From positions 19,158,001-19,222,000 of the forward strand of contig OZ024753.1 of NCBI GenBank assembly GCA_964016885.1: a stretch of DNA of 64,000 nt, in the 5' to 3' direction. Under the pieces are notes generated by a model. The model was not told the origin of the DNA. It ran no database searches and saw only the letters and a list, made by a program, of their open reading frames with translations. Below are positions 3,356 through 62,875 of this stretch, piece by piece. The translations under genes were made by a program, and so were the position numbers. How positions within the stretch are numbered: the stretch's first letter is position 1; each line of letters opens with the position of its first letter. This DNA is from Eledone cirrhosa (Eukaryota).

Positions 3356-3461
3356 GCTCCGAAGATCTGACTGGTTATAATTCTGTATTGGCGATCGAGT
3401 GACGCAAAATTAGGCGGATAGCGATCTCTAGACATACCAGTTCAGTGAAACAAATGTAAGC
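3356..3461 (+). ncRNA. Type I hammerhead-like motif, long stem II, core variant CCGAAGA
   Basis: gct-CCGAAGA-t-ctgactggt...accagttcag-t-GAAA-caaatg-TA-agc in the PLE 3' region. Confidence 0.55.
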
Positions 3462-4091
3462 TATGTGATTAAAAACTTTTTTGTATAGCAAACCATGTAA
3501 ACCTTCTTTCCTGATTTATATATATATATATTAATATATATATATATATATATATATATATATATATATATATATATATATATATATATATATGTGTATG
3601 TGTGTGTGTGCGGGTGTGGGTGCGCGCGAGTGTGTGAGTGTGTGTGTTTGTGAAAATGTCTGTTGACTTTTGGAATATAGTTTAAGAGGAATTTGGTATG
3701 ATATGCATGATATGCACTCAATATTTTGAACTGGTCTATAGAATTCTCTAGGCCTTTGTCACTAAGTAGAACCTTAAAGAATTAGCTTTTAAAGAATTTC
3801 CCTTTTCTTTAAATCCATCAACCATGACTGACTCCCAACGATCTTATAGACAACTGAAATCTAGGAATTGTTAGCTTAAGAGAAACTTAAAAATAAGGAT
3901 TGGCACCCCGTTCTGAACTTGTTTATAGAATTATTTCTGCCTTTGTTACTCTAAATATAAACTATAGCTTTAAAGAATTAGCTTTTAATGAATTCCCTTT
4001 CTATCAACCAATGACCGTTACCCACCCTACTCCCTACCCTCTCTTACCACCTGAAGAGACCTATAAATACCATATTTATTTTTTGATACCC

Positions 4092-4142
4092 AGATTCCTG
4101 ATGATTTCTAAGGGTTGAAACAGTTCTAGTCCTGTAGAATCT
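4092..4142 (+). ncRNA. Type I hammerhead ribozyme motif
   Basis: agattc-CTGATGA-tttctaagggtt-GAAA-cag...ctg-TA-gaatct; 6-bp stem I, weak stem II. Confidence 0.7.
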
Positions 4143-4519
4143 CATCTATATTAAAACTTTTATACTCTGAAATGTATTGAGTACCTTACTTACTGTGGTT
4201 ACCTCCGATTCAACCCATAATAACGTAGATAGATATATATATATATATATATTTCTTTTATTTGCCACTAGGGCATCAAAAGTGGGACAAGTACAAAGGG
4301 GGGAGTTTACACAAAAAGGCGTCCTCAATAAGGAGGAGGCAATAACAAAATATAAAAATAAAATAAGATATAACAAAAAATAAAATTTTTTTTTTTAACA
4401 AAATCCTCAATAGAAACGAGGCGCCTTGGGGGGTCGCACACACCCCCGAAAAAAGTGTGCAACCCTTCTCCTCAGGAGCACAGAGAAGGGGTGCTCCCTT
4501 GGTCTTTCATCTTCCTCAC

Positions 4520-60518: not shown

Positions 60519-61432
60519 ATATCCAGTGCTTTTATCGAGAATGACACAGCTAGAGACTTATAGAATACTTAGCTGTGTACAGGAACTGGTTTGAAAGAGC
60601 GGTTGCCGGTCCGGCAGAAATTAGAAATTGGAATAAATGCTCTGAAATAGCGATATATATGTGAATATAGACATAGAATATTCGAAAATATTCTGTATGT
60701 TTATAATAAACATTTTGAAGACCTAATCGCTATAGAATAGAATACGTCACGTATTACAATTAGATTCTCGATAAAAGCAAGGGAAGTAATCTACGCGTTT
60801 CATTCTTGTTAGAAATCATCAGGACTACATATCCAGTGCTTTTATCGAGAATGACACAGCTAGAGACTTATAGAATACTTAGCTGTGTACAGGAACTGGT
60901 TTGAAAGAGCGGTTGCCGGTCCGGCAGAAATTAGAAATTGGAATAAATGCTCTGAAATAGCGATATATATGTGAATATAGACATAGAATATTCGAAAATA
61001 TTCTGTATGTTTATAATAAACATTTTGAAGACCTAATCGCTATAGAATAGAATACGTCACGTATTACAATTAGATTCTCGATAAAAGCAAGGGAAGTAAT
61101 CTACGCGTTTCATTCTTGTTAGAAATCATCAGGACTACATATCCAGTGCTTTTATCGAGAATGACACAGCTAGAGACTTATAGAATACTAAGCTGTGTAC
61201 AGGAACTGGTTTGAAAGAGCGGTTGCCGGTCCGGCAGAAATTAGAAATTGGAATAAATGCTCTGAAATAGCGATATATATGTGAATATAGACATAGAATA
61301 TTCGAAAATATTCTGTATGTTTATAATAAACATCTGCCGGACCGGCAACCGCTCTTTCAAACCAGTTCCTGTACACAGCTAAGTATTCTATAAGTCTCTA
61401 GCTGTGTCATTCTCGATAAAAGCACTGGATAT

Positions 61433-61475
61433 GTAGTCCTGATGATTTCTAACAAGAATGAAACGCGTAGATTAC
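61433..61475 (+). ncRNA. Array hammerhead (also 61743-61785, 62053-62095, 62363-62405)
   Basis: gtagtc-CTGATGA-t-ttct-aaca-agaa-t-GAAA-cgcg-TA-gattac. Confidence 0.92.
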
Positions 61476-62810
61476 TTCCCTTGCTTTTATCGAGAATCTA
61501 ATTGTAATACGTGACGTATTCTATTCTATAGCGATTAGGTCTTCAAAATGTTTATTATAAACATACAGAATATTTTCGAATATTCTATGTCTATATTCAC
61601 ATATATATCGCTATTTCAGAGCATTTATTTCAATTTCTAATTTCTGCCGGACCGGCAACCGCTCTTTCAAACCAGTTCCTGTACACAGCTAAGTATTCTA
61701 TAAGTCTCTAGCTGTGTCATTCTCGATAAAAGCACTGGATATGTAGTCCTGATGATTTCTAACAAGAATGAAACGCGTAGATTACTTCCCTTGCTTTTAT
61801 CGAGAATCTAATTGTAATACGTGACGTATTCTATTCTATAGCGATTAGGTCTTCAAAATGTTTATTATAAACATACAGAATATTTTCGAATATTCTATGT
61901 CTATATTCACATATATATCGCTATTTCAGAGCATTTATTCCAATTTCTAATTTCTGCCGGACCGGCAACCGCTCTTTCAAACCAGTTCCTGTACACAGCT
62001 AAGTATTCTATAAGTCTCTAGCTGTGTCATTCTCGATAAAAGCACTGGATATGTAGTCCTGATGATTTCTAACAAGAATGAAACGCGTAGATTACTTCCC
62101 TTGCTTTTATCGAGAATCTAATTGTAATACGTGACGTATTCTATTCTATAGCGATTAGGTCTTCAAAATGTTTATTATAAACATACAGAATATTTTCGAA
62201 TATTCTATGTCTATATTCACATATATATCGCTATTTCAGAGCATTTATTCCAATTTCTAATTTCTGCCGGACCGGCAACCGCTCTTTCAAACCAGTTCCT
62301 GTACACAGCTAAGTATTCTATAAGTCTCTAGCTGTGTCATTCTCGATAAAAGCACTGGATATGTAGTCCTGATGATTTCTAACAAGAATGAAACGCGTAG
62401 ATTACTTCCCTTGCTTTTATCGAGAATCTAATTGTAATACGTGACGTATTCTATTCTATAGCGATTAGGTCTTCAAAATGTTTATTATAAACATACAGAA
62501 TATTTTCGAATATTCTATGTCTATATTCACATATATATCGCTATTTCAGAGCATTTATTCCAATATATATATATATATATATATATATATATATATATAT
62601 ATATATATATATGCAAAAGTTCTATTTAAAATTCTTGGGATACAACAAGTAAATATTTTTATAACTAATATAAAGCACTCGACAAGTATTTGGAGTAGAT
62701 GTACGATATCAATAAATGGAAACTATATTTATAAAACAATATATTTATTTCATTATACATATTTCAGGGATACCAAATTAAATATATTGTATATACCAAA
62801 TTATATATTG

Positions 62811-62875
62811 TATTTTGTCTGATGAAGGCATACCATAATTTAATTTGGTATCCCTGAAATATGTATAATGAAATA
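62811..62875 (+). ncRNA. Type I hammerhead inside a fold-back (62702-62793 / 62839-62917)
   Basis: tattttgt-CTGATGA-aggcatacca...tggtatccct-GAAA-tatgta-TA-atgaaata. Confidence 0.85.

Follow-up and report, generated by a model that had tools for sequence, protein, structure and literature searches.

Why does one stretch of 64,000 nucleotides in the genome of Eledone cirrhosa seem crowded with self-cleaving ribozymes, and how did they come to be there? The stretch (NCBI GenBank assembly GCA_964016885.1, contig OZ024753.1, positions 19,158,001 to 19,222,000; hereafter the window, in which position 1 is the first letter) belongs to a 3.0-Gb assembly, is AT-rich and dense in (TA)n microsatellites, and its recognisable long open reading frames (ORFs) are transposon remnants: two copies of one long interspersed nuclear element (LINE), a second LINE, a piece of a DNA transposon and several Penelope-like elements (PLEs). 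A first-pass annotation, made from the letters alone, had listed about 30 hammerhead ribozymes (HHRs) here. Our analysis bears out nearly all of them and leads us to conclude, with considerable confidence, that the window is a (TA)n-rich pile-up of PLE insertions, in which the HHRs lie near the 3' ends of Hydra- and Neptune-type families, and of a handful of tandem units without genes, which likely use the same enzymes.

By sequence and covariation, the motifs in the window are real type I hammerheads, for which self-cutting is predicted. A strict type I descriptor returned 14 to 15 motifs, compared with a mean of 0.03 to 0.04 per shuffle in 100 block-wise (local) dinucleotide shuffles. A scored descriptor, which allows one core mismatch and a stem II of up to 110 nt (score of at least 20), returned 27 motifs against 0.33 in 12 shuffles of the window, a density far above that of dinucleotide-shuffled DNA; the core (CUGANGA, GAAA and UH boxes in C-G-S order, with stems I to III) is intact in 23 of these motifs and carries one mismatch in 4. 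The scored motifs account for 25 of the 30 listed sites, and four sites that the descriptor misses (13127, 39104, 40400 and 56684) were confirmed through homologous copies elsewhere in the genome, which brings the confirmed type I HHRs to 29. The remaining site, at 37346, is doubtful: its CUGAUGA is intact, its stem III is broken, and it has no homologue among the loci compared. Core changes in listed copies are U4C at 3356, G8A at 10313, G12A at 16026, and C3 opposite A8 at 39104 and 40400. The earlier list lacks two scored sites, 17207(-) and 49303(+), as well as a decayed copy (33506-33553, minus strand) and two motifs, at 23102(-) and 50613(+), whose boxes stand in S-G-C order. A descriptor for this S-G-C order, requiring stems I and III, gave 2 matches in the window against 0.03 shuffled and 3 in 800 kb of random loci against 0 to 1 shuffled; both window motifs are multi-copy, with stems I and III paired. 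Type III topology was tried and rejected (0 matches, both for the window and for 800 kb of random loci), as were the core variants G3-C8 and A3-U8, with 0 and 1 matches, the level of the shuffles. In an Rfam scan, the sole hammerhead match among the 150 of 209 matches listed was to HH9, which scored 27 bits where the cut-off is 52, and the scan otherwise gave microsatellite-driven microRNA noise.

Clustering of 179 motifs, taken from the window and 139 loci of 10 kb, gave 33 clusters. The confirmed sites on the list fall into 13 (eleven descriptor clusters plus F20 and G), so that the earlier figure of at least ten families stands, but not their description as unrelated: three sites share one cluster, two clusters are distantly related, and the coding-linked families are mostly of Hydra type. 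Across the 33 clusters the core is constant, N7 is variable and stem II ranges from 11 to 103 nt. Stem II is closed (10.1-11.1) by U-U, a tolerated pair according to PMC3088659, in 74 of the 179 motifs and by G10.1-C11.1 in 16. In 28 of the 33 clusters stem III is short and self-complementary, and hammerheads with a short palindromic stem III are described in the literature as cutting as dimers. The formal covariation count covers F0, the largest of the clusters, for which we aligned 48 of 50 homology-gathered copies (two cut by locus ends were left out), representing 47 distinct sequences. In this alignment 94.5% of cells pair, all nine stem II pairs, and 11 of 19 pairs over all stems, are altered on both sides, the covariation score was matched by none of 500 shuffles, and slid-structure controls paired at 39 to 55%. 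The earlier remark that the stems vary in sequence yet stay paired thus holds for this family, and since descriptor hits served as seeds for its profile and relatedness is not taken into account by the shuffle, the covariation should be taken as strong but not as a probability.

What carries these motifs? Judged by their motifs, the carriers are PLEs of the Hydra and Neptune types and, judged by their structure, retrozymes of the non-LTR kind (LTR, long terminal repeat). The 29 confirmed motifs reduce to about 18 insertions once the arms, the tandem units and one locally duplicated stretch are each counted a single time. Copies within each family share common 3' ends, about 20 to 150 nt past the predicted cut, and have ragged 5' ends. 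Of the 179 clustered motifs, 120 are solo, 26 are tandem and 33 stand in inverted pairs, 31 of these 33 back-to-back; the two arms end at two sites about 20 to 80 nt apart. A one-sided tail of two-armed insertions has been described for PLEs (PMC8557442). In several families we observed that the longer arm ends in a CTCT...TGAG-type tail (after 4142, 10310(-), 17150(-), 40494 and 56512), a motif found in 18 copies of 7 clusters compared with 78 of 3,000 random stretches; it did not assign the remaining families to a carrier.

The link to PLE coding sequence emerges from long copies, in which eight window families or subfamilies run into a PLE ORF. Long F9 copies reach a Neptune-type ORF 0.4 kb upstream; long copies of F16, of the 36799 subfamily of F0 and of F3 reach a PLE ORF 0.8 to 1.0 kb upstream; and F8 has a same-strand PLE ORF 1.65 kb upstream in 7 of 12 loci. 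At every one of ten loci selected for having G pairs far apart, PLE coding sequence lies about 1.1 to 1.2 kb from a G motif. The G and F3 ORFs span 645 to 786 amino acids and have the Hydra-clade CxCx5C linker, which is present in the longest ORF at 7 of 10 G loci and 3 of 10 F3 loci, and at L293 (G) and L301 (F3) the ORF lies between two same-strand motifs, in a tandem pseudo-long terminal repeat layout. The 62819 subfamily of F0 is probably also Hydra-linked, given an ORF 1.5 to 1.7 kb upstream in 2 of the 37 copies examined. Other families are non-coding tandem repeats, with periods of 310 (F1), 633 (F17), 522 (F6), about 486 (F11) and about 450 nt (F2), the last three outside the window; F1 arrays are dispersed and near-identical, and their 310-nt unit folds at a z of -4.9. 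The first-pass view of autonomous PLE helpers alongside diverse non-autonomous units is accordingly right in that coding PLEs and gene-less tandem units (F1, F17) both carry HHRs, but many units that it counted as non-coding are short 3' stubs left by autonomous elements whose 3' untranslated regions (UTRs) are long. Among the 29 confirmed sites, 12 belong to ORF-linked families and 2 probably do, 9 are tandem non-coding, 2 are F12 copies in which no link was seen, and 4 (F20, F21, F23 and the 60121 subfamily of F0) have no shown carrier.

We propose that PLE endonuclease would nick at (TA)n, as PLE biology leads one to expect, and that target-primed reverse transcription would then proceed from both sides of the break, starting at the 3' part of the RNA. 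Because copying would begin in that part, even a stub of 100 to 200 nt would keep one HHR and a two-armed insertion two. New copies may insert into (TA)n that older ones left behind, so that local density would rise, and the retrozyme-like units may use the PLE enzymes in trans, as has been proposed for retrozymes (PMC7229834; 10.64898/2026.07.22.740005). The short palindromic stem III is predicted to make the ribozymes cut as dimers, and tandem transcripts would be processed into units or circles, with most integrated copies templated by RNA that was uncut or re-joined at the cut.

How far the window represents the genome was estimated from eighty 10-kb loci, drawn in proportion to length from 23 contigs that make up 92% of the assembly (799.6 kb). 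This random sample held 70 motifs, 55 with intact cores, compared with 1 to 4 in six shuffles, that is, 0.875 per 10 kb (bootstrap 0.60 to 1.21) or one per 11 kb; an evenly spaced first sample of 39 loci gave 41 motifs in 390 kb. Scaled to 3.0 Gb, the genome would hold about 260,000 motifs (180,000 to 360,000), some 206,000 of them with intact cores. The descriptor recovered 139 of 191 homologous copies spanning the motif and leaves aside the U3-A8 and S-G-C forms, which makes this a lower estimate. For the U3-A8 form, the random sample held five matches against 0 to 1 shuffled, among them four further well-formed hammerheads of other families, at the loci L064, L072, L090 and L115. Exact pattern matches genome-wide numbered 28,748 for the 62819 subfamily, 17,750 for F3 (a 31-mer), 6,950 for F9 and 5,612 for G, and for F9 the count agrees with the roughly 7,500 predicted from two sampled motifs in 800 kb. 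At 4.2 per 10 kb, the window is about five times denser than the genome mean, with its 200-kb flanks at 2.05, so that the earlier figure of one HHR per 2 kb is a local one, about five times too high for the genome as a whole. The richer a locus is in (TA)n, the more motifs it tends to hold (rho 0.47), and 58 of the 70 sampled motifs lie within 500 nt of (TA)6+, compared with 33% of random and 50% of same-locus positions, in line with the shared (TA)n targets that the first-pass annotation had proposed. Published counts for minimal motifs are 2,000 to 9,000 in schistosome, coelacanth and Xenopus (PMC4209133), and more than 6,000 motifs in 16 families have been reported from a coral, about 5,000 from a mussel and up to 120,000 from axolotl (PMC7229834); our estimate exceeds all the published counts compared, though descriptors differ between studies. 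Our literature search found no census of octopus or cephalopod hammerheads, although the supplements of Cervera 2014 and 2020 and file S2 of Craig may list some, and the word "ribozyme" is absent from the main text of a 2026 octopus repeat annotation (PMC13282606).

Two of the autonomous Hydra families have, to judge from their sequences, spread with variant cores. In F3, the core is U4A in 100 of 100 among the matches listed; in G, among the matches listed, A8 is paired with U3 in 76 of 100 and faces C3 in 24 of 100, with C3/A8 often present in both arms. U3-A8 and U4C are already known as natural hammerhead variants, and the U4A core was not found in the hammerhead literature compared, although the supplements just mentioned may list it.

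Whether such motifs cut in the cell may be read from the ends of genomic copies. We counted copies of F9, F2 and F3 by where their homology starts relative to the predicted cut. In F9, 26 copies start at the cut itself, compared with 7 at -10 (six of them one slippage deletion), 3 at -5, 9 at +5 and 9 at +10 (eight of them one slippage deletion); 24 of the 26 hold with a longer anchor, and about 19 are independent after removal of duplicates, point changes and small deletions. At L172/L173, L175 and L182 both arms stop at or beside the scissile bond. Such a test is weakened by threefold variation from offset to offset, unequal anchor lengths and microhomology that blurs many joints, and what the genomic copy ends suggest is in-cell cleavage for F9 only. 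Over 99% of F9 copies continue across the cut site (6,950 versus the 26 that start there); judged by these copies, most templates were uncut or re-joined at the cut. We also observed, at L042:6401-6860, an F9 copy end/internal deletion exactly at the predicted scissile bond; most short G copies start at +41 to +55, inside stem II and away from the cut.

Several results weigh against the account given above. Neither of the other two families tested has a peak of starts at the cut: F3 has 96 at -10, 32 at -5, 108 at 0 and 112 at +5, and F2 has 22 at -5, 26 at 0, 51 at +5 and 103 at +10. Monomer folds are mostly no more stable than shuffles, for which reason folding energy adds little. The ORF link was seen at one genomic place in F4 (L251/L252) and at two in F5 (L283, L289). 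The loci used for the F8, F4 and F5 links and for those of G and F3 were chosen as long or paired copies, and they speak to the existence of the link, not to its frequency. Finally, 6 of the 29 confirmed sites (the four unassigned ones and the two of F12) are without a shown partner, and 2 more have only a probable one.

Among other explanations, the one that survives best, although we consider it unlikely, is that the HHRs are largely passengers, the elements spreading regardless of ribozyme cutting. The thousands of copies of the autonomous F3 with its fixed U4A core are what this would predict, as are C3 opposite A8 in family G, the great excess of read-through F9 copies and the missing cut-site peaks of F2 and F3; minimal PLE HHRs are, moreover, described as weakly active in vitro (PMC4209133), and a 2026 preprint (10.64898/2026.07.22.740005) reports cleavage in one of nine elements. 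Yet the core is kept in 33 clusters with differing flanks, N7 alone being free to vary, C3-G8 covaries to U3-A8 in several families, and the stems covary; this combination of kept core and covariation argues for long-term selection on the catalytic fold, and the copy ends of F9 peak at the scissile bond. A bolder synthesis, which we offer tentatively and hold to be possible rather than probable, is that the minimal Neptune HHR cuts in living cells and Hydra elements with non-canonical cores (U4A; C3 opposite A8) have spread to thousands, so that cleavage would be real but not needed in each round, and that this is the largest and most varied natural HHR collection counted (at least 250,000 motifs in more than 30 families).

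The first-pass view in its full form, a few autonomous helpers with a majority of dedicated non-autonomous ribozyme elements, now appears improbable. The gene-less tandem units F1 and F17 in the window and F2, F6 and F11 elsewhere do make up 23 of the 70 randomly sampled motifs, and PLE coding sequence lies within 2.5 kb of just 21 of the 70. But F3, F4, F5, F8 and G, all first taken as non-coding, reach a PLE ORF 1.0 to 1.7 kb upstream in long copies, and coding sequence is expected to be missing nearby because copies are truncated and have long UTRs. When assigned by cluster, 36 of the 70 motifs fall in clusters whose link to an ORF is shown or probable (with F7 and every F0 subfamily included), 23 are tandem non-coding and 11 are unassigned. 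A ribozyme-rich locus kept by host selection for some regulatory role, which the elevated density of the window (roughly fivefold over the genome mean and twofold over the 200-kb flanks) might bring to mind, has very little to recommend it: all sites belong to dispersed repeat families except 37346 (none) and 57952 (distant relatives only), several copies have core or stem damage, no long non-transposon ORF was recognised, and motif density follows (TA)n content. Random matching in AT-rich sequence, or an artefact of assembly, can be set aside almost entirely. Of the 51 CUGANGA words in the window, about half have no explanation, in keeping with chance, for which our estimate is about 24, but the shuffle controls, the lack of type III matches in the same DNA and the 310-nt F1 unit in contigs from public sequencing runs, with 0 to 1 differences over 340 letters, speak against both.

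The pile-up of PLE insertions and retrozyme-like units is laid out in Table 1. The ORF of the first element, which is 5'-truncated and in which the DK[GT] motif was not seen, has its nearest proteins at 30 to 36% identity, the named ones from coral and bryozoan, and the mirror HHR of its 3' motif lies 361 nt before the window (L149). The Neptune-type PLE has a GIY-YIG domain, a CX2-5CxxC linker before it and the DKG motif, all present. Further copies of F12 are cut by (TA)n at 26083 and 28792, and no ORF link was seen for this family; no CxCx5C linker was found in the broken ORF at 34444-35849. The + arm of the G stub has an additional tail of about 78 nt. The F22 HHR, on the opposite strand to the neighbouring ORF remnant, is probably that remnant's second arm. 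The cores of the F1 array lie at 60512, 60822 and 61132 (-) and at 61439, 61749, 62059 and 62369 (+).

Table 1. PLE-derived, retrozyme-like and hammerhead features of the window (EN, endonuclease; RT, reverse transcriptase)
Feature	Position	Strand	Remarks
Hydra-clade PLE ORF remnant	464-2200	-	RT and C-terminal GIY-YIG-type EN, CxCx5C linker (clade motif as in PMC8557442)
Inverted second arm of Hydra-clade element	2070-2981	+	
Type I HHR, F16	3350-3468	+	U4C core, 81-nt stem II; at the 3' end of the + arm (Hydra element)
Type I HHR, F4	4092-4142	+	Core intact, stem II weak
F4 HHR pair, back-to-back	10310-10412	both	10357(-) G8A; 10365(+) stem I damaged at fold-back joint; one stub insertion
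Type I HHR, F8	10728-10786	-	Classic G-C stem II; 3' end of Hydra-like PLE, 3' UTR of about 1.65 kb
F17 non-coding tandem dimer, 633-nt unit	12231-13532	-	HHRs 12495-12575 and 13127-13209; 8-bp stem III
Type I HHR, F21	16019-16078	-	G12A here; L149 homologue has GAAA
Type I HHR, F5	17150-17217	-	C3U here; not on earlier list
Two-armed Neptune-type PLE	17412-23039	both	Frameshifted ORF 19217-22475(+), inverted short arm 17412-18787(-)
Minimal HHRs, F9, of Neptune-type PLE	17532-17570, 22862-22900	-, +	
Candidate S-G-C-order hammerhead	23075-23152	-	Not on earlier list
F12 HHRs	25357-25477, 28060-28180	+	94-nt stem II; local 2.7-kb duplication
Type I HHR, F4	30873-30926	+	Stem II decayed
Decayed F3 copy (U4A-core family, autonomous Hydra PLE)	33506-33553	-	Not on earlier list
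Hydra-like PLE remnant	34444-36861	+	Broken ORF 34444-35849; 3' HHR 36791-36861 (F0)
Doubtful HHR	37346-37409	-	Intact CUGAUGA, broken stem III
Minimal HHR, F9	38966-39004	-	Stub of Neptune element
Two-armed family G stub (autonomous Hydra PLE)	39089-40587	both	HHRs 39105-39198(-) and 40401-40494(+); C3/A8 here
Type I HHR, F5	49291-49366	+	Core intact; not on earlier list
Candidate S-G-C-order hammerhead	50564-50640	+	Not on earlier list
Hydra-like ORF remnant	55116-56106	-	Within 55116-56512
HHR, F22	56423-56512	+	Stem I weak; opposite strand to ORF remnant 55116-56106
Type I HHR, F20	56684-56741	-	One stem III mismatch
Type I HHR, F23	57905-57960	-	Distant relative of F8
Type I HHR, F0 third subfamily (60121)	60110-60170	+	No ORF link seen
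F1 two-armed array, 310-nt non-coding unit	60343-62564	both	7 HHRs; retrozyme-like; (TA)n flanks
Type I HHR, F0 commonest subfamily (62819)	62805-62880	+	Inverted partial arm from 62696

The rest of the window holds repeats of other kinds. A 5.5-kb LINE, which we take to be Tx1-like, occurs twice on the minus strand (4231-9747 and 43534-49046), the copies being 98% identical and having an ORF1-like frame, endonuclease, RT and zf-RVT; the second LINE, at 41392-43330(+), is a truncated endonuclease-RT remnant, presumably RTE-like. At 32596-33483 lies a small DNA-transposon remnant with inverted ends and a match to HTH_32, which we assume to be Tc1/mariner-like, and an RT-like fragment at the window end, 63159-64000(+), differs from the other PLE pieces. 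A repeat of about 185 nt resembling a short interspersed nuclear element has at least 6 copies, including those at 14329-14748, 15439-15627, 33760-33956, 51420-51612 and 54178-54267, and a minisatellite at 30282-30708 consists of 10 copies of a 42-nt unit. Pfam recognised GIY-YIG in 1 of the 11 PLE-like pieces submitted and missed most PLE pieces.

The kinds of element found here are already known, and what the present work adds is scale, family diversity, the mapping of parents to stubs, and variant cores. In agreement with the metazoan PLE HHRs of Cervera and de la Pena 2014 (PMC4209133), the HHRs of this genome lie in terminal repeats, have a short palindromic helix III, fall into many families per genome, stand mostly in solo truncated copies or in opposite-strand pairs 100 to 700 bp apart, and show U3-A8 covariation. 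They differ from them in that (i) the counts given there are 2,000 to 9,000 per genome, by that study's own descriptor, compared with our estimated 260,000; (ii) G10.1-C11.1 is rare here (16 of 179); (iii) stem II reaches 80 to 103 nt; and (iv) they include a U4A core, of which no example was found in the text compared. The Hydra-like elements share a C-terminal EN, the CxCx5C linker, a canonical HHR, (TA)n targets, an inverted 5'-truncated arm and a one-sided tail with the Hydra-clade PLEs described by Craig et al. 2021 (PMC8557442), among which Hydra-1_Obim, an octopus family preferring (TA)n, is already catalogued; there, few families are described from outside Cnidaria, whereas here at least six are Hydra-like by motif, with 3' UTRs of 0.8 to 1.7 kb and copy numbers from thousands to tens of thousands per family. 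The Neptune-type element agrees with that clade (PMC8557442) in its CX2-5CxxC linker before GIY-YIG, its DKG and its minimal HHR about 0.4 kb past the ORF, and the window copy, although frameshifted, shows no difference of kind.

A similar agreement holds for the gene-less units, which resemble the non-LTR retrozymes (Cervera and de la Pena 2020, PMC7229834; Li et al. 2026, 10.64898/2026.07.22.740005) in being non-coding tandem units of 300 to 630 nt, low in GC, with one type I HHR per unit, in co-occurring with PLEs, and in the strongly self-pairing unit (z -4.9); they differ in that the arrays here are two-armed, like PLE insertions. The two S-G-C-order motifs of the window share their box order and stems I and III with the Type-SGC hammerheads of Eckert et al. 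2023 (PMC10085705), which were reported from metatranscriptomes, whereas ours are candidates recognised from stems I and III. The role of HHRs in PLEs has been called unclear in the literature, and their in vitro activity low. Dozens of families, autonomous parents to go with them, young retrozyme arrays and core variants that have become fixed provide a panel for massively parallel cleavage assays, and the same panel could show whether cleavage is needed for mobility. Studies of cyclic-phosphate ends or circular RNA in this animal group would also have to contend with an endogenous ribozyme background of very large size, one that goes unflagged by Rfam.

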